Positions 4,674 through 60,643 of a stretch of 64,000 nucleotides of DNA are shown in pieces. Every line of letters begins with the position of its first letter. Position 1 is the first letter of the stretch. This DNA comes from Rickettsiales bacterium (lineage in GTDB: Bacteria > Pseudomonadota > Alphaproteobacteria > Rickettsiales > JAJNBL01): NCBI GenBank assembly GCA_021156175.1, contig JAJNBL010000002.1:197029-261028 (forward strand), in the 5' to 3' direction. A program made the translations under genes and the position numbers. The notes below the pieces were generated by a model. That model was given only the letters and a program-made list of their open reading frames with translations. It searched no databases and was not told where the DNA came from.

Positions 4674-6193
4674 GCATGTTAAAACCCCTCACCCACACGC
4701 TCCGCTTACTTCGCATTGTGACCGTCCTTGCGCGGCACGGAGCATTTCCGTTGCTGTTTCATAAACCGACCGAACCTTTTCCTTCGACCGTACGTCTTTC
4801 CCGCGCTTTTGAAAAACTAGGCCCAAGCTTCATCAAACTGGGGCAAACGCTTTCCACACGCCCCGATGTCATTGGCGAAGATGCCGCGCGCGACCTTGCA
4901 ACTCTCCAGGACCGCCTCCCACCGTTCGCTGGCGATATAGCCATTGCCTGGATTGAAAAGGAACTGGGAGCTCCGCTTGCCTCGCTGTTTTCCTCCTTCG
5001 ATAGCACTGCCATTGCCGCCGCTTCCATCGCACAAGTCCATAAGGCTGTAACGCTGGAAGGCAAAACCGTAGCCGTTAAAATCCTTCGCCCGCGTATTGA
5101 GAAAGCCTTCGCAAAAGATCTCGCCTTCTTTGCGTGGATTGCGCGCGTACTTGAACACTTCGTCCCTTCCGTCCGAAGGCTAAAACCTCGTGAAGTGGTT
5201 GCGATGTTTGCCGAAAGCGTGAAGCTCGAGATGGATTTACGTTTTGAAGCCGCAGCTGCGTCGGAACTCGCCGAAAATATGAAGAAGGATAAACACATCC
5301 GCGTGCCCGCCATTGATTGGCACCGCACCTCGCGCCGCGTGATGACGCTCGAATGGGCCGATGGCATCCCCATTCACGATCGAGAGGCACTCCTTGCCGC
5401 CGGACATGATTTAACCGGACTTGCGAACAAGCTCGCCCTCACCTTCTTTAACCAAGCCTACCGTGATGGATTCTTCCATGCGGATATGCATCCGGGCAAT
5501 CTGTTTGTGGATAAGGACGGCAATCTTGTGCCGGTCGATTTTGGTATTATGGGCCGCCTGGATCGCGAGAACCGGCTCTATGTCGCCCAAATCTTGCAAG
5601 GATTCCTCGAGCGGGATTACTTCAAAGTAGCTGAAATTCATATTAAAGCCGGCTATGTGCCCCCTTATACAAAAGTCGATTTATTTGCCCAAGCCTGCCG
5701 CTCGATCGGCGAGCCGATTATCGGCCTTCCCACCTCAAAAATCTCCGTGGCACGGCTGCTCGCCCAACTGTTTAAGGTAACTCAAGATTTCGCGATGGAA
5801 ACCCAGCCGCAGCTGCTTTTACTCCAAAAAACGATGGTACTCGTCGAAGGCCTAGGCGCTACTTTGAATCCTACTATCAATATGTGGCAGCTTGCCGAGC
5901 CCTGGATCAAAGAATGGGCGATCGACCATCTGGGCCCCGAAGCACGAATTAAGAACTACCTTAAGGACGCCTACCGTTCGGTTAAAAAACTCCCTAATCT
6001 TGTCACCACCCTAGAGCATGTGGCTTATGCCACCGCACGCGAAGGCTTTAGGCTCCATCCGGAAACTGTCCGAACGCTTGTCCGCGAACGCCACCGCCGT
6101 GCTCCGGGTGTTTCCCGTTACCCGCTGTTTCCCTGGCTGCTAGGGATCGCTATCGGCATTGCGGTAACGTTGACCCTTACCCATCTGAGCTAG
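4661..6193 (+). CDS. ubiB: ubiquinone biosynthesis regulatory kinase-like protein UbiB (ABC1 family)
   Basis: 510 aa; ABC1 motifs [11 protein letters not shown] and [12 protein letters not shown]; C-terminal TM. The track start is a TTG at 4661 overlapping the ubiE stop; an ATG at 4676 is an alternative start. Confidence 0.9.
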
Positions 6194-18600: not shown

Positions 18601-18616
18601 TGTTTCACGTGAAACA
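18601..18616. other. parS centromere-like site
   Basis: TGTTTCACGTGAAACA, a perfect 16-bp palindrome matching the parS consensus; extended palindrome 18599-18618. Confidence 0.85.
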
Positions 18617-30191: not shown

Positions 30192-30650
30192 GATGACACT
30201 CTACAATTTCCCACGTCTTTTTGAAAAGCCCTTATACATTTTTTTTCACGAGAAGTATCCTACTATCTAATAAGTATTTATTAGAGAAATAAAGTAGAGG
30301 TAATAGTTGTCCTTCCGGATATGGGGATACAATAGTTTACACGGAGTTTTCCACATAGTGATGGGAGTTGAAAATAGTTGGGGATAATTATGGGGATATA
30401 GAGTATAAGCTATTGTTATTGTATTAAAAATAATAGGGTTTATATATATAGTTATAAAGGACATTACTACTTACTCCCATTATCCCGATCCCTACTTAGC
30501 AACTTATCCTCAGGGGATAAATCATGAATCACTTGTGGTATTTTTGTTGAGAAAACCCCTTTAGCTGCGTAAGATCACTTTCGCACAGAGTTATGCAAGC
30601 GGTTATCCTCACGCTTATCCACAATTTTAGAAATAAATGATTTAACACCT
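30192..30650. other. candidate chromosomal replication origin (oriC)
   Basis: 459-bp non-coding gap between hemE and the RP001/PDRP homologue. Perfect DnaA box TTATCCACA at 30615-30623; at least 7 one- or two-mismatch boxes; AT-rich core about 30400-30470. Confidence 0.65.
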
Positions 30651-47897: not shown

Positions 47898-47913
47898 TGT
47901 TTCACGTGAAACA
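47898..47913. other. parS centromere-like site
   Basis: TGTTTCACGTGAAACA; extended 22-bp palindrome 47895-47916. Confidence 0.85.
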
Positions 47914-53112: not shown

Positions 53113-54465
53113 ATGGCCGATACAATTTTTGCTCTTTCTACGGCTCCCGCGGTTTCTGGGGTGGCGATTGTCCGCATCTCGGGTGCGGGTGCGAAAGAGG
53201 CGTTGGCGCTTACCGAAACGTTTAAAAGGGAAGGGCTTCCTGCCCCTCGCCAAGCCCGGTTGGTCGCGCTTTCTCACCCCACAACAGACGAACTGATTGA
53301 TAAAGGATTGGCGCTTTGGTTTCCGGGGCCACACAGTTTTACCGGGGAAGATACGGTCGAATTCCATATCCATGGGAGTCGTGCAGTAATCCAGGAGTTG
53401 CTCGAGGTGCTTCGAAGGTTTCCCAACTTCCGTATGGCGGAGCCTGGTGAATTTTCGCGTCGTGCGTTCTTGAATGGAAAAATGGATTTAACCCAAGCCG
53501 ATGGTTTGGCGGATTTGATCGAAGCCGAAACCTCGCTCCAAAAGCGCCAAGCCCTTCGTCAAATGGAAGGGGAACTTTTCACTCTTTACGAAGGGTGGCG
53601 GAGTGGGTTGATTCGGATGTTGGCGCTGCTCGAGGCCTATATTGATTTCCCGGATGAAGATATCCCCGAGGATGTCCTGGAGGAACTGAAGGCGGGCGTT
53701 GCCGGTTTACAAGAAGAAATCCAGGCGCATTTACACGATGGGCACAAAGGGGAAAAGCTTAAAAGTGGCTTGCAGGTGGTGATTGTTGGCGCGCCAAACG
53801 CTGGAAAGTCCAGCCTTATGAACTGCCTAGCAAGACGGGATGTGGCAATAACCTCCCCCATTGCCGGAACCACGCGCGACACGATTGAAATCCAAATGGA
53901 TGTGGGCGGTTATCCCATTGTTCTTGTGGATACAGCAGGGCTTCGAGAAAGTAGTGATCTTATTGAAAATGAAGGAATAAAGCGGGCCAAAGCAAAAGCC
54001 GTTAATGCCGATCTGGTGCTGGCCTTGTTTGACCAAGATGCGCTTCCCCGTATGGATAAGGCGACGTATGAAATGTTAGGGCCGGACGCGCTGGTATGTA
54101 TCAGTAAAATAGATAAAAACCCTCAAAGTTCTAACCTAGAGTTGCCAGAGGCGCTTGCCTCCCATAAGCCCGTAAGGCTTTCCACCGAAACCGGAGAGGG
54201 CATCGACGCGTTACTTAAGGCACTGGAAGAAAAAGCAAAAACCTATCTCGGGGTGGGGGCGTCGCCGCTTATTACCCGTGCCCGGTACCGGGAGGCGTTA
54301 GGCCATTGTATGGAATCGTTGGAGCGTTTTAGTTTCGATATTCCGTTGGAGCTGGCGGCGGAAGATCTGCGGATGGCGGGTCGCTCGCTTGGGCGGATTA
54401 CGGGTCGGATAGATGTGGAAGATATTCTCGACAGCCTCTTCCAGCAGTTTTGTATAGGAAAATGA
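53113..54465 (+). CDS. mnmE: tRNA modification GTPase MnmE
   Basis: 450 aa; G1 motif GAPNAGKSSL; C-terminal CIGK. Confidence 0.95.
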   Translation: MADTIFALSTAPAVSGVAIVRISGAGAKEALALTETFKREGLPAPRQARLVALSHPTTDELIDKGLALWFPGPHSFTGEDTVEFHIHGSRAVIQELLEVLRRFPNFRMAEPGEFSRRAFLNGKMDLTQADGLADLIEAETSLQKRQALRQMEGELFTLYEGWRSGLIRMLALLEAYIDFPDEDIPEDVLEELKAGVAGLQEEIQAHLHDGHKGEKLKSGLQVVIVGAPNAGKSSLMNCLARRDVAITSPIAGTTRDTIEIQMDVGGYPIVLVDTAGLRESSDLIENEGIKRAKAKAVNADLVLALFDQDALPRMDKATYEMLGPDALVCISKIDKNPQSSNLELPEALASHKPVRLSTETGEGIDALLKALEEKAKTYLGVGASPLITRARYREALGHCMESLERFSFDIPLELAAEDLRMAGRSLGRITGRIDVEDILDSLFQQFCIGK

Positions 54466-54531
54466 GTGGTTTTCTGATATATGGTTCTTCCACTTTAAAA
54501 TTCCTCATGGCTGTAATGGATTTACAGAAAA

Positions 54532-54547
54532 TGTTTCACGTGAAACA
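54532..54547. other. parS centromere-like site
   Basis: TGTTTCACGTGAAACA; extended 24-bp palindrome 54528-54551. Confidence 0.85.
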
Positions 54548-54593
54548 TTTTATTACCAAGATTAACGATTGAATCCCCGGGAAGCGTAAAAAT

Positions 54594-56510
54594 ATGAGCC
54601 AATATTCCTATGATGTGATTGTCATCGGTGGTGGGCATGCGGGGACGGAAGCCGCCTCAGCGGCCGCGCGCGTGGGTGCAAAGACGCTTCTGATTTCACA
54701 TAGGCTGGAAACGATTGGCGAAATGTCCTGTAACCCGGCCATTGGTGGGGTCGCGAAAGGAACGTTGGTTAAAGAAATAGATGCGCTTGATGGCGTGATG
54801 GGGCGGGCAATTGACCGCGCCGGCATTCATTATCGAATGCTTAATCAGCGCAAGGGCCCGGCCGTATGGGGGCCTCGCGCGCAAGCTGACCGTGCGTTAT
54901 ACCGTGAAGCGATCCAGGATATTCTCCATTCGCAAGAGAATCTAACGATCCGCGCGGCATCTGTTGAAGACATTATAATAGAGAATAATGAAGTCCAAGG
55001 CATCGTAACTGCGGATGGCGAAACGATTCGTGCGCCGAAAGTGATCTTAACCACGGGAACCTTTTTAAGGGGACTTATCCATCAAGGGAAGACCCAAATC
55101 CCGGCAGGTAGGGTAGGTGAGGCTCCGTCCATTGGGCTTTCCGACACGCTCCATCGGGTCGGCTTCATGATGGGGCGCCTTAAAACCGGGACGCCCGCGC
55201 GCCTTGATCGCGAGACGATTAATTGGTCGATTTTGGAAGAGCAGGCGGGGGATAATCCACCGCGTCCGTTTTCGACCCTCACGGACAAAGTTTTGGTTCC
55301 GCAAATTTCTTGTTACATTACCTATACGAATGCGGCAACTCATGCAGTGATTCGGGAAAATATCCATCAATCGCCGATGTATTCAGGCCAGATTGAAAGC
55401 CGGGGACCGCGTTATTGCCCTTCGATTGAAGATAAGATTGTTCGCTTTGCCGATAAAGAGCGGCACCAGATTTTCTTGGAGCCGGAAGGTTTGAATGACC
55501 CGACGGTTTATCCGAATGGCATTTCGACGTCATTGCCGGAAGATGTCCAAAAAGCTTTAATCAAAACGATTCCAGGTTTGGAAAATGTTGTGATGTTCCG
55601 GGCGGGCTATGCGATTGAGTATGATTATGTCGATCCTCGCGAACTTCACCCCACCTTGGAAACGAAAAAAGTGCGCGGGCTTTATCTTGCAGGTCAGATC
55701 AATGGAACAACCGGTTATGAAGAAGCGGGCGGGCAGGGGCTGATTGCGGGTTTCAACGCGGCATTGTCGGCGTCAGGATCCGAGCCGTTTGTGGTGGATC
55801 GTGCGGAAGGCTATATCGGCGTGATGATCGATGATTTGGTGACGCTTGGCACCAAAGAACCGTACCGGATGTTTACCTCCCGTTCGGAATACCGTCTGTC
55901 GCTTCGCGCGGATAATGCAGATTTGCGTTTAACCGAGCGTGCGATTGCGATCGGTGCAACATCGATCAGGAGAGAAAAAGCCTTTACCGAAAAGAAAACG
56001 GCGCTGGATGCGGCGCGGGAATTTTTGCGTAGCCATAGCTTAACTCCGAACAAAGCGGAAGCCTATGGTATTGTGATAAAGCATGATGGTGTGCCGCGCA
56101 ATGGAATAAGCTTGTTGCGTTTTCCGGAGGTTACCATGGAAAAGCTGCGGAGCATCTGGCCAGAAATGCCTTCGTTCAATCCGGATGTGGCCGAGCAATT
56201 GATGATTGAGGCGACCTACGATGCCTATTTAGAACGTCAGGAAGCGGACATTGCTCTCTTTAAGAATGATGAGAAAATCCGTATTCCAGAAGGGTTTGAC
56301 TACCATAAGGTCGGCAGTCTTTCCAACGAAGTGCGCGAGAAATTATCAATGCTTAAGCCCGTGACGCTTGGCGCAGCGGGCCGTATTCCAGGTATTACGC
56401 CAGCGGCCGTGACGGCATTGATGGTGCATTTGCGTCAATCGGCAAAAACATCTCGGAATACGAAGCCAGAAAACAATGATTCAGATGAGGAGGACCATGC
56501 AGCCGCCTAA
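54594..56510 (+). CDS. mnmG: tRNA uridine 5-carboxymethylaminomethyl modification enzyme MnmG (GidA)
   Basis: 638 aa; [17 protein letters not shown] motif; acidic C-terminal tail. Confidence 0.96.
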
Positions 56511-57171
56511 GATACCTCCTACGGTAAAAGCACAAATTGATAAATATATTAGTGAAAATGTTTCACGTGAAACATTTGAGCGTCTCGATCAGTATGTCGT
56601 TGATCTTTTGCAATGGAACCAATCGATCAATCTTATCGGCAAGAATACGGAAGTTATGATATGGGATCGGCATATTTTAGATTCCGCCCAACTGCTTTCG
56701 CATATTCCTGAGCACACAAGAATCATTACAGATATCGGAAGCGGTGCGGGATTGCCCGGAATGGTGCTGGCGATTCTTGGGAATTTTTTGGAAGTACATT
56801 TAGTAGAAAGTGATCGAAGGAAAGCTCTGTTTTTGGAGGCGGTTGCTCCGCTTGGAGGAGATACGCGAGTGATCGTGCATAAGAGCCGGGCTGAAATTTT
56901 GGGTGCATCCGCGACATGGGAAAGCGATGTTATCACCGCGCGGGCCTGTGCGCCGCTTACCACATTGTTAGAACTTATCTCTCCTTTTATAGAAGGTAAG
57001 CAAAAAAAATGCTTATCACTCCTCCTAAAAGGGAGTAGTGTGGAGAAAGAGTTAGAGGAAGCAGCGCGTAAATGGAATATTCTTTCGTATGATGCCCATC
57101 CCAGCATTACACATGACGAGGGGCGAATTTTGGCGATTCAGGAATTTCATCTGCGTTCTAAAACCTCTTAA
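56497..57171 (+). CDS. rsmG: 16S rRNA (guanine527-N7)-methyltransferase RsmG (GidB)
   Basis: SAM motif [10 protein letters not shown]. Start ambiguous (ATG at 56476, 56485 or 56497). Contains a parS site read as NVSRETF. Confidence 0.88.
56559..56574. other. parS centromere-like site inside the rsmG coding sequence
   Basis: TGTTTCACGTGAAACA, identical to the four intergenic copies. Confidence 0.85.
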
Positions 57172-57203
57172 GAAAAAATCGGTAAATAGGCGGAGGCACG
57201 GCA

Positions 57204-58037
57204 ATGGGTAACGAAAAACCAAGTTGTAAAGTCATCGCGATTGTAAACCAAAAAGGCGGCGTGGGGAAAACCACGACGGCAGTGAATTTGGCAACCGCGC
57301 TCGCGGCGGTGCGCAAACGGACATTATTACTCGATCTTGATCCTCAAGGGAATGCAAGTACCGGGGTGGGAATTCCACCGGATAATCGTAAGGTAACGAT
57401 ATACCAGGTGATTTCAGGATTAGAAGCGCCGGAATCAGCAATTCTCAAAACGGCGGTGCCGTATTTAGATGTGATTCCTGCCGATATGGATTTGGCAGCG
57501 TCGGAAATGGAGCTGGCGCCGATTGCGCGTCGAGAATTTGTCGTCCGTCAGATTATCGACATACTTGCTCCCAAATACGACTATATATTAATTGACTGTC
57601 CGCCCTCATTGAGTTTATTGACGGTCAATGCATTGGTCGCGTCCAATACCGTATTGATCCCGGTGCAGTGCGAATATTTTGCACTCGAAGGCTTAAGTCA
57701 TTTGTTAAAGACGATTAAGCTTGTGAAGAAACGTTTGAACCCGGCGCTTCGGATCGAAGGCCTGGTGTTGACCATGTATGATAAGCGCAACCGCCTGACG
57801 GAACAAGTGGAAGGCGAGGTGCGGGAGTATTTTACGGATCTGGTTTATAAGACGGTGATTCCACGTAATGTTCGATTGTCGGAAGCGCCCTCGCATGGGA
57901 AGCCGGCAATTATTTATGATTTACAATGTCCGGGCTCGAAGGCCTATCTGCATTTGGCGCGCGAATTATTGAAGCGTCAGACAGAGATGAAAAAATTACG
58001 GCAAGACGAAACCATGGAAGAGGAGAAAGTTGCATGA
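57204..58037 (+). CDS. parA: chromosome partitioning ATPase ParA
   Basis: 277 aa; deviant Walker A NQKGGVGKTTT. Confidence 0.95.
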   Translation: MGNEKPSCKVIAIVNQKGGVGKTTTAVNLATALAAVRKRTLLLDLDPQGNASTGVGIPPDNRKVTIYQVISGLEAPESAILKTAVPYLDVIPADMDLAASEMELAPIARREFVVRQIIDILAPKYDYILIDCPPSLSLLTVNALVASNTVLIPVQCEYFALEGLSHLLKTIKLVKKRLNPALRIEGLVLTMYDKRNRLTEQVEGEVREYFTDLVYKTVIPRNVRLSEAPSHGKPAIIYDLQCPGSKAYLHLARELLKRQTEMKKLRQDETMEEEKVA

Positions 58038-58972
58038 TCCCAGGGAAGAATCAAGGTTTAGGCAAGGGGTTGGCTGCGCTCATTGGCGATATTGAAGAAG
58101 AAACAATTGCCATAGAAAAAAGCGGGCGCGTACCGCCGACCGTTGAACGGAGAAAAGGGGAGTGGCAAGTCGAATTCCTTTCCGTGGATTTGCTTGAGGC
58201 GGGGCCGTATCAGCCACGCGCCTATTTTGACGAAGAGGCACTTCGCGAACTTGCGGATTCTATTAAAGAGCGCGGAGTGTTGCAGCCGGTGGTCGTTCGT
58301 CCGATGGGAGGAAATGGAAAACATCCGATTATTGCGGGAGAGCGCCGGTGGCGTGCTTGTCGGTTAGCGGGACTTTCCGTGATTCCAGCGATCGTTCGGG
58401 ATCTTACCGAAAAAGAAGCGCTGCAAGTTGCACTGATTGAAAACATCCAACGTAAAGATCTTACGATTGTAGAAGAAGCAGAAGGGTATAGCCGACTGAT
58501 TGAGGAATTCTATTATACCCAAGAACAGCTTGCCGACCAGTTAGGGAAAAGCCGTAGCCATATCAGCAATTTGCTGCGTTTGTTGCAATTGCCGGACGAA
58601 GTGAAAAATATGCTCAATGATGGGGTGCTCTCAATGGGGCATGCGCGGGCGTTACTCAATGCACATAATCCTTCCGAGGTGGCGCGTTCGATTGTTGCGC
58701 GAGGATTAAATGTTCGGCAAACGGAAGCTTTGATGCGCGGCGAGGCGTTGGACAAGGAACATGAGCGTCAGGATCGGAACCGCCAACCCTTCGGTGGAAA
58801 AGTACAAAAACCCAAAGACGAAGATTTGGTACAGCTTGAGCAAATGCTTTCCGAGCGGATGGGATTGCCGGTCACTATTTATGAACAAGAAAAAGGTGGT
58901 CAAGTGCAAATCCAATTTAGTAATCTTGAAGAGCTCGATAAAATTCTTCAACGCCTTACCGCCACTGTCTAA
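58034..58972 (+). CDS. parB: chromosome partitioning protein ParB
   Basis: The track ORF starts at 57926. I prefer the ATG at 58034 (ATGA overlap with the parA stop; N-terminus MIPGKNQGLGKGLAALI). ParB box GERRWRA; HTH segment. Confidence 0.93.
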   Translation: MIPGKNQGLGKGLAALIGDIEEETIAIEKSGRVPPTVERRKGEWQVEFLSVDLLEAGPYQPRAYFDEEALRELADSIKERGVLQPVVVRPMGGNGKHPIIAGERRWRACRLAGLSVIPAIVRDLTEKEALQVALIENIQRKDLTIVEEAEGYSRLIEEFYYTQEQLADQLGKSRSHISNLLRLLQLPDEVKNMLNDGVLSMGHARALLNAHNPSEVARSIVARGLNVRQTEALMRGEALDKEHERQDRNRQPFGGKVQKPKDEDLVQLEQMLSERMGLPVTIYEQEKGGQVQIQFSNLEELDKILQRLTATV

Positions 58973-58974
58973 AA

Positions 58975-58990
58975 TGTTTCACGTGAAACA
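58975..58990. other. parS centromere-like site
   Basis: TGTTTCACGTGAAACA, starting 3 nt after the parB stop. Confidence 0.88.
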
Positions 58991-59062
58991 TTTGGTTAAC
59001 AAAATTAATTGGGAGGGGCTGTATAGCCTCTCCTTTTGTACAAATAGGAATGAGTAAAACAA

Positions 59063-60643
59063 ATGAGCAACCTACGCGAAACCGCACTCTTAAGCACCGC
59101 TTGGCCGTTTGTCGAAGCGAAAAAGATTTTGGAACGGATAGAAGGGAAGACTCCAAAGAAAGGATATGTCCTGTTTGAAACAGGGTATGGCCCTTCAGGG
59201 TTGCCACATATAGGAACGTTTGGTGAAGTCGCGCGGACACAAATGGTGCGTAAAGCTTTTGAGGCGATGTCCGATATTCCGACCAAACTCATTTGCATTT
59301 CCGATGATATGGATGGACTCAGGAAAGTGCCGGAAAATCTTCCGAACACGGAAATGCTAGCGAAATATATAGCAAAGCCGCTGACCTCGGTGCCGGATCC
59401 ATTTGGAACCCATGAGAGTTATGGGCATCATATGAATGCGCGGCTGCGCGCGTTTTTGGATCATTACGGTTTTGATTATGAGTTCAAAAGCTCGACCGAA
59501 TGTTACAAAAACGGCGAGTTTGATGAGAAGCTTTTGGCGTTGCTGAAACGTTATGATGATGTGATGAAAGTAATGTTGCCAACCTTAGGGGCTGAGCGTC
59601 AGGCAACTTATAGTCCGTTTCTCCCGATTTCACCAAAAACCGGAAATGTGCTCTATGTCCCGGTGGTGCCGAATGTCGCGAAAGGGACGATTTCTTTTGC
59701 CGATGAAGATGGAACCCCGACGGAATTACCAGTGACGGGCGGGCATTGTAAGTTGCAATGGAAACCCGATTTGGGCATGCGTTGGGCTGCGTTTGATGTG
59801 GATTTTGAGATGTATGGGAAAGACCATTTGGCGTCGGCTCCGCTTTATACCAAAATTTGCGAGATTGCCGGAGGCAAAGCGCCAGAACAATTTAAATACG
59901 AATTGTTTCTTGATGAAAAAGGCGAGAAAATTTCGAAGTCAAAGGGGAATGGGATCACCATTGACGAATGGCTGCGTTATGCACCAACGGAAAGTTTGTC
60001 GCTCTATATGTATCAAAGTCCGAACAAAGCAAAGCGTCTGTATTTTGATGTGATCCCTCGTCAGATGGATGATTACCTGACGTTCTTGCAAAAATATCCT
60101 GAGCAAGATGACGCGACGAAATTGGCCAATCCGGTATGGCATATCCATCAAGGAAAACCGCCCATATCCCAACTTTCTGGACTGTCGTTTAGCTTGTTGT
60201 TGAACTTGGCGAGCGCCTGTAACCCCGAAGACCCTTCGGTATTATGGGGCTTTATTTCTCGTTATGCACCGGGTGTGACAGAAGAAAAAGATGTGATCCT
60301 TAAAGACATGGTGAAGCACGCGCTGGTCTATTACCACGATTTCATTAAGCCAAATAAGCAATACCGTGCACCAAGCAATGAAGAACGTGAAGCATTGATC
60401 GCGCTGGCGGAGGCACTTAAAGCTGTGCCGGCGGGTTCCTCTGCGGAAGAGATCCAGAATGTCGTGTATGCGGTGGGGCGGGATCGGTTTGCGGATCAGA
60501 AATTGTGGTTCCAGGCGCTTTATGAAGTCTTGTTAGGTGCAAGCCAAGGTCCGCGTTTTGGTTCATTCATTGCGCTGTATGGCATCAAGGAAACGCTTGG
60601 GCTTATCGGTAAGGCACTCGAAGGCAAAGACTTAGCGGCATAA
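59063..60643 (+). CDS. lysK: lysyl-tRNA synthetase, class I
   Basis: 526 aa; HIGH-type motif PHIGTFGE and KMSKS-type motif KISKSKG. Confidence 0.9.

Follow-up and report, generated by a model that had tools for sequence, protein, structure and literature searches.

Does the 16-bp palindrome repeated around the mnmG-rsmG-parA-parB genes of this bacterium belong to a chromosomal centromere, and how is the copy that lies inside a reading frame to be understood? In the window (the whole 64,000-nucleotide stretch of DNA that was analysed), a motif scan placed exact copies of TGTTTCACGTGAAACA at 54532-54547, 56559-56574 and 58975-58990. An exact re-scan returned the same coordinates for the three identical 16-mers of the initial annotation, but not the same count, since copies at 18601 and 47898 had been missed and the window contains five. 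The contexts first described are borne out. The first copy occupies the spacer between mnmE, which ends at 54465, and mnmG, which starts at 54594. There, it forms the core of a perfect 24-bp palindrome, AAAATGTTTCACGTGAAACATTTT (54528-54551), with the mnmG start 47 nt downstream. The second copy (plus strand) falls within codons 21-26 of rsmG, where it is translated in frame as (N)VSRET(F). The third begins 3 nt past the parB TAA stop (58970-58972), between this stop and the operon terminator.

All of these palindromes match the parS consensus TGTTNCACGTGAAACA, exactly at five sites in the window and at seven in the genome. One hundred shuffled windows contained a mean of 0.01 matches to TGTTTCACGTGAAACA, and the 2.015-Mb genome holds seven exact copies, versus about 0.0005 expected, together with two one-mismatch copies. 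Cumulative GC skew along the contig reaches its minimum at window position 30267 and five DnaA-box-like 9-mers are found at 30-31 kb, which places oriC at about 30.3 kb (30192-30650). The skew minimum and the DnaA-box cluster both fall in a 40.4-kb span, 2% of the genome, which holds five of the seven exact copies, spread from -12 to +29 kb of oriC. The motif is not evenly scattered around the genome, in line with the initial annotation. The copy at 18601-18616 is in the sucB/lpdA intergenic spacer, approximately 11.8 kb left of oriC, and that at 47898-47913 lies between two convergent genes, at +17.5 kb. The two distal copies are on contig C3, at C3:200804 (intergenic) and C3:354020 (inside ybeY); their distances from the origin, bounded by GC-skew polarity only, are at least ~254 kb and ~407 kb. 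A parS copy was absent from the ybeY genes of 29 relatives, and a terminus search returned no dif-like site within seven mismatches of E. coli dif. With two exact copies so far from the origin, a centromeric role is not required of every copy.

The genes next to the three clustered copies encode the expected partners. On the plus strand, mnmG (gidA; 54594-56510; TIGR00136, 858 bits) overlaps by 14 nt the start of rsmG (gidB; 56497-57171), whose likely ATG at 56497 is preceded by an AGGAGGA Shine-Dalgarno sequence. On the same strand, parA (57204-58037) encodes a Walker-type ParA/Soj ATPase (PF13614, 216 bits) and shares an ATGA stop/start overlap with parB (58034-58972), so that the Soj-type ParA is adjacent to its three-domain cognate ParB in one operon. 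This ParB, the only one in the genome, comprises ParB_N, HTH_ParB and ParB_C domains, the latter for dimerisation, and contains GERRWRA (the CTP motif) and GKSR...MGHAR. It matches the solved parS-binding ParBs of M. xanthus, C. crescentus (6t1f), B. subtilis and T. thermophilus with E values of 1e-50 to 1e-57, and both motifs were aligned to these solved proteins. The residues that set parS specificity, R173, N178, G201 and R204 (Jalal et al. 2020, PMC7383237), all have equivalents in it, as judged from positions counted from the GKSR motif.

The positions of the sites recur in relatives, whose loci were gathered by genome searches and with MnmG as anchor. Among 29 order-level relatives, one per family, the homologous rsmG position carries an exact site in 13 and a site with at most two mismatches in 6 more. 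A sample of 80 named loci from Alphaproteobacteria gave, for the rsmG site, 39 exact copies and 18 with one mismatch among 75 (57/75) and, for the site ahead of mnmG, 28 exact copies and 19 with one mismatch among 78 (47/78). At the level of the class, parS in an rsmG context was found in 84 of 201 sampled genomes, with none for a reversed-pattern control; the genomes sampled are related, not independent, and all these tallies count more retentions than occurred independently. The order parS-mnmG-rsmG(parS)-parA-parB is repeated in order-level loci, only a few of which have the extra parS downstream of parB, and in the Pelagibacteraceae loci examined the rsmG-embedded copy is the only parS found. 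By this comparison, the parS within rsmG is an old site common to the Alphaproteobacteria at large, and the arrangement of three parS copies around mnmG-rsmG-parA-parB follows an ancient layout of the class.

The parS reading proposed at the outset stood up to each computational check that could be made: the exact consensus, the adjacent canonical ParA and ParB, the clustering at the origin and the positions conserved in Alphaproteobacteria. We put at roughly 93% the probability that the palindromes are the parS centromere sites of this chromosome, part of a type Ia ParABS system. Following established ParB biochemistry, ParB dimers (58034-58972) would recognise each 16-bp palindrome through their helix-turn-helix. 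On binding CTP through GERRxR, the dimers would close into clamps that slide along to the DNA on either side. Together, the five sites from -12 to +29 kb relative to oriC would build one partition complex, and the adjacent ParA ATPase would move it, thereby segregating newly replicated origins. The observation holds, but it is an ordinary one, a ParABS centromere of the textbook type, and it leaves the current understanding of chromosome segregation unchanged.

Very improbably, the main function of the palindromes could be not ParB binding but the formation of terminator or attenuator hairpins in RNA, or they could be operators at which some other regulator that recognises CACGTG controls the mnmG-parB operon. 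The extended parS palindrome does form a 9-bp RNA hairpin on folding, one copy stands in the mnmG leader and another in the parB 3' UTR, and a weak promoter-like site (54474-54501) lies upstream of the palindrome at 54528-54551, 31 nt from the first copy. However, the stem is AT-rich and is not scored as terminator-like, and the mnmG-rsmG-parAB unit has a separate, strong intrinsic terminator downstream, at 59011-59038 (plus strand), with a 10-bp GC-rich stem, a 4-nt loop and UUUU; on these two grounds the terminator reading was rejected. A consensus terminator scan did not list 59011-59038; the 86-nt segment 58965-59050, which spans this stem and the parS hairpin, folds with a z-score of -4.1. 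Moreover, the sequence is the exact ParB consensus, and its conservation is just as high within a reading frame, a place where termination would do harm.

This coding copy could also be read the other way round, with RsmG needing VSRET and the parS match being a by-product of protein-level selection, a proposal to which we give slightly less credit still. VSRET is encoded in 67 of the 104 alphaproteobacterial rsmG loci examined, as such a need would have it. Yet its codons are GTT-TCA-CGT-GAA in 67 of 67 carriers, with zero synonymous variation over four codons for which 288 synonymous alternatives exist, in genes whose GC3 over the rest of rsmG ranges from 0.15 to 0.82. In addition, the 22 rsmG loci with at least five parS mismatches encode unrelated peptides at this position, RFAPEAI, LDNDTTQ and GASDAQV being examples from loci with a decayed site, and the segment is not conserved in solved RsmG orthologues. 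Of the other frames of the palindrome, one contains TGA and one reads FHVK, leaving VSRET as the only useful frame.

Because the codons are frozen wherever VSRET occurs and the peptide is unrelated wherever parS has been lost, it is the DNA site that determines the peptide and not the peptide that determines the site. The parS site thus imposes VSRET on an N-terminal stretch of RsmG that is under little constraint, and selection on the DNA keeps this copy in place. The initial annotation had held that the copy must satisfy ParB binding and the RsmG sequence at the same time. The DNA side of that constraint stands, and the protein side does not, the peptide being freely replaced; in the alignment of RsmG orthologues, the VSRET segment is not retained where parS is absent. 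The rsmG copy is a very clean case of a protein motif that exists only through a DNA-binding site in its codons, and VSRET could be mistaken for a functional RsmG motif by annotators or by conservation-based methods. A literature search for VSRET returned nothing relevant, one on parS with gidB or rsmG returned only a statement on Thermus, and coding-embedded parS sites are not discussed in the Caulobacter paper and the ParB review consulted.

Identity between the copies at 54532, 56559 and 58975 extends to 23 bp (AAAA + 16-mer + TTT), for which selection on flanking positions or recent homogenisation had been offered as explanations; the former is favoured and the latter is not needed. Class-wide, A is found at positions -1 and -2 of parS in 52-57% of cases versus a background of 26%, as read from the retrieved loci of the relatives. 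In this genome, AAA/TT(T) flanks are present on all five origin-proximal sites and not on the two distal ones. The AAAA/TTT(T) flanks seen here extend the class-wide AA/TT preference, which refines the parS consensus in a minor way that can be tested. A generic dispersed repeat (REP- or MITE-like), or recent gene conversion without centromere function, might account for 23 common bp in excess of the 16-bp consensus and for two exact copies outside the origin region, but is most improbable with only seven copies in 2 Mb, five of them within 40 kb of oriC, with the same 16-mer at homologous positions in other families and orders, which homogenisation within one genome cannot explain, and with a flank bias that is class-wide. 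Longer mobile units with target-site duplications were not seen around the sites, and the homogenisation reading was rejected on the positional conservation and the flank bias.

For the parS sites themselves, it is possible, if on balance doubtful, that the functional alphaproteobacterial parS is about 20 bp long (AA-TGTTTCACGTGAAACA-TT), reaching 22-24 bp in this lineage, and that the rsmG copy is the ancestral core centromere of the class; its position is fixed by the coding sequence and it is the sole parS in the Pelagibacteraceae loci. With A/T-tract flanks, ParB might nucleate at a higher affinity or load more clamps, for instance via DNA shape. If parS is indeed of about 20 bp, the flanks would tell centromeric copies from origin-distal ones.

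SMC loading is the usual second role of ParB-parS. No gene for an SMC or MukB/MksB condensin was found in this genome, whose completeness is rated at 100%. The best match to TIGR02168 scored 23 bits, and an SMC hinge model, which also missed Caulobacter, had no match. SMC_N matches above the cut-off were limited to frames of 566 and 390 aa, the sizes of RecN and RecF. Among open frames of at least 500 aa, none carried a G.NG.GKS Walker A motif besides two of 619-633 aa, which were judged ABC-F-like. With neither SMC nor MukB found, ParB-parS probably has no SMC-loading role in this genome. In this uncultured alphaproteobacterium, labelled Rickettsiales-like, the sites show where the centromere is and confirm the origin region; the segregation machinery is of the standard ParABS type, apparently operating without SMC.

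Three known systems can be compared with this one. The Spo0J/parS system of Bacillus subtilis uses the same 16-bp palindrome, with sites concentrated near the origin and, reportedly, one parS within a coding sequence of the par locus, that of spo0J itself. There, ParB-parS serves to load SMC. Opposite VSRET, the aligned GidB of B. subtilis reads LSPRQ, and thus has no parS at that position. Caulobacter crescentus, of the same class, shares the 16-bp parS consensus (Tran et al. 2018, PMC5815017; Jalal et al. 2020, PMC7383237, PMC7053999) and has several parS sites a few kb to tens of kb from the origin, around gidA-gidB-parA-parB; its ParB has the same domain order, GERRxR motif and R173/G201 specificity residues. 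In contrast, Caulobacter has an SMC, whereas none was found in this genome, and the three Caulobacteraceae loci examined have parS upstream of mnmG and none in rsmG, whereas this genome keeps the rsmG copy. A comparable case comes from a different phylum: in Thermus thermophilus HB27, the single chromosomal parS (parSc) lies inside gidB, which encodes the 16S rRNA methyltransferase and directly precedes parA (Li et al. 2015, PMC4409726).

The chromosomal centromere site parS, a 16-bp palindrome (TGTTTCACGTGAAACA) bound by ParB, has exact matches at window positions 54532, 56559 and 58975, where the initial annotation had placed it. Two further exact copies lie in the window, at 18601 and 47898; shuffled windows gave a mean of 0.01 matches to the 16-mer. 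Genome-wide (2.015 Mb in 12 contigs, rated 100% complete), seven exact copies were counted, namely these five and two on contig C3 (C3:200804 and C3:354020), where arithmetic from base composition gives ~5e-4 expected. The window copies are located in the sucB/lpdA spacer (18601), between convergent genes (47898), in the mnmG leader (54532), within rsmG (56559) and in the parB 3' UTR (58975), and the C3 copies in a divergent intergenic region (200804) and within ybeY (354020). In addition, two one-mismatch copies are found within a 320-aa ORF (C3:47420) and within a 652-aa membrane-protein ORF (C6:49664), which from its motifs looks like CcmF.

On the contig carrying the window (C4:197029-261028), cumulative GC skew reaches its minimum at window 30267, at a cluster of five DnaA-box-like 9-mers. 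The window sites are offset from it by -11.8, +17.5, +24.1, +26.1 and +28.6 kb. Hence, the genome-wide count proposed in the initial annotation places five of the seven exact copies around the origin, in a region making up 2% of the genome. GC skew is negative throughout C3, and contig geometry would separate its two sites from the origin by at least ~254 kb and ~407 kb. The ybeY copy (L131:1809-1824, corresponding to C3:354020-354035), for which the minimum is ~254 kb, reads IVSRETL and is without AAA/TTT flanks. In 29 order-level relatives, ybeY has no counterpart (>3 mismatches), so this is a lineage-specific distal copy. One relative with a 1.3-Mb single-contig genome (G033), in which no rsmG match was found, has its only exact parS at C1:945292-945307, ~100 nt away from where its ybeY match ends, which could be coincidental or reflect a relocated centromere.

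Gene calls agree with the labels first assigned: mnmE (53113-54465), mnmG (54594-56510), rsmG (56497-57171), parA (57204-58037) and parB (58034-58972, with an ATGA overlap with parA), followed 3' by a class-I lysyl-tRNA ligase gene (59063-60643). Within window 56476-56510, the start of rsmG is most likely the ATG at 56497, immediately behind AGGAGGA, and not the longest-ORF ATG at 56476; it gives a 14-nt overlap with the end of mnmG. The last parS copy starts 3 nt past the parB stop and is followed by a strong intrinsic terminator at 59011-59038 (a 10-bp GC-rich stem and UUUU), so that it lies in the operon 3' UTR. This terminator was missed by a consensus terminator scan. Three of the sites are inside a single mnmG-parB transcription unit, in its leader, in rsmG and in its 3' UTR, and ParB would therefore load straight onto its own operon. 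Autoregulation of the par operon by ParB is possible.

The rsmG copy is translated in frame as N-V-S-R-E-T-F. All four coding-embedded copies in the genome (in rsmG, ybeY and the 652-aa and 320-aa ORFs) read VSRET, a consequence of the palindrome's own sequence, of which one frame contains TGA, one gives FHVK and one gives VSRET. Across 104 alphaproteobacterial rsmG loci, VSRET is encoded at this place in 67. Its first four codons are GTT, TCA, CGT and GAA in 67/67, with GC3 elsewhere in the gene ranging from 0.15 to 0.82, and variation is confined to the last base of the site (ACA 53, ACT 7, ACG 6, ACC 1). At 22 loci whose DNA differs from the site by 5 mismatches or more, unrelated peptides are encoded (RFAPEAI, LDNDTTQ, GASDAQV, LKNTYNF), and the segment is therefore not kept where parS is gone. 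B. subtilis GidB has LSPRQ aligned at this position, and other solved RsmG structures can be aligned only downstream of it. From the invariant codons and the unrelated peptides at drifted sites, VSRET is a side effect of purifying selection acting on the DNA site, and RsmG puts up with almost any sequence here. Of the proposal that this copy must serve ParB and the RsmG sequence at once, the DNA constraint holds but the peptide constraint does not.

The organism is an alphaproteobacterium, and the reference set contains no other representative of its family; its best MnmG match, in a MAG labelled Rickettsiales, is 68% identical. Among 29 order-level relatives, one per family, the rsmG position carries an exact parS in 13 and one with at most 2 mismatches in 6 more. 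The layout parS - mnmG - rsmG(parS) - parA - parB recurs in 20 larger order-level loci, with a site 20-120 nt 5' of mnmG in most and an extra site 3' of parB in few. Class-wide, 201 genomes were sampled evenly, and 84 of them contain parS with the TGG...AAY of the conserved W-N-x-x-I-N motif correctly spaced after it; a few of these 84 matches lie outside rsmG. A reversed control pattern had no matches in the 201. In 80 named loci, taking in Sneathiella, Thalassospira, Skermanella, Brucella, Rhizobium, Magnetospirillum, Hyphomonadaceae and Pelagibacteraceae, the rsmG site is exact in 39/75 (one mismatch in 18 more), and a site within 400 nt 5' of mnmG is exact in 28/78 (one mismatch in 19 more). 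Pelagibacteraceae loci (L095-L100, L109, L112-L118, L122, L125, L127, L129) mostly have the rsmG parS alone, exact or with one mismatch, in the ~9 kb examined, in keeping with a role as core centromere in these streamlined genomes. Several alphaproteobacterial lineages (L051, L055, L069, L072, L074, L091, L114 and L124, at ~4885-4928) have another parS, with one mismatch or none, ~1.4 kb into the mnmG CDS, which suggests that a second site is conserved within coding sequence; it is absent from this genome.

Identity between the copies at 54532, 56559 and 58975 extends to 23 bp, and the first with its flanks is a perfect 24-bp palindrome, AAAATGTTTCACGTGAAACATTTT (54528-54551). Either selection on flanking positions or recent homogenisation had been proposed. 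The five ori-proximal copies have AA at 10/10 half-sites and AAA at 9/10; the two distal exact copies are without such AA flanks. In 32 order-level exact sites (64 half-sites), A occurs at -1, -2 and -3 in 56%, 70% and 59% (background 29%). Class-wide, 27 exact intergenic sites upstream of mnmG (54 half-sites) have A at -1 in 52% (binomial p ~4e-5) and at -2 in 56% (p ~3e-6), with -3 unbiased, and 40 rsmG sites (80 half-sites) have 56%, 57% and 31%, the last not enriched (background 26% for both). The longer identity is therefore best explained by flank selection common to the class, which leaves recent homogenisation unneeded.

ParB has ParB_N, HTH_ParB and ParB_C domains, is the sole ParB_N match in the genome, and aligns with solved parS-binding ParBs at E-values of 1e-50 to 1e-57. 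Its N-terminus contains LGKGLAALIG, the usual ParA-contact motif, and ParA is a standard Walker-type ParA. ParB also carries GERRWRA and GKSRSHISNLLRLLQLP...SMGHAR, the equivalents of R173, N178, G201 and R204 (counted from GKSR), and L and Q at tolerant positions 179 and 184. R173 and G201 set parS versus NBS specificity (Jalal et al. 2020, PMC7383237). Searches of the genome, rated 100% complete, for an SMC, MukB or Mks-type condensin gave none: its best TIGR02168 match scores 23 bits, and SMC_N matches above cut-off are solely frames of RecN or RecF size. In this organism ParABS seems to operate without SMC, and parS probably has no part in SMC loading. ParB dimers would nucleate at each palindrome, bind CTP and form closed clamps that slide; the five sites would assemble a single origin-linked partition complex, the copies of which would be separated by nucleoid ParA-ATP.

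Overall, by its sequence the arrangement is a textbook chromosomal ParABS, real, rightly read and ordinary. Worth keeping are the clean demonstration of a DNA site dictating a peptide and the AA/TT flank preference; our literature search found no paper spelling out the dual coding of VSRET and parS. As here, parS has been reported within gidB/rsmG in Thermus thermophilus (PMC4409726), and an ori-proximal parS cluster around gidAB-parAB is likewise standard in Caulobacter and others (PMC5815017, PMC7022226).
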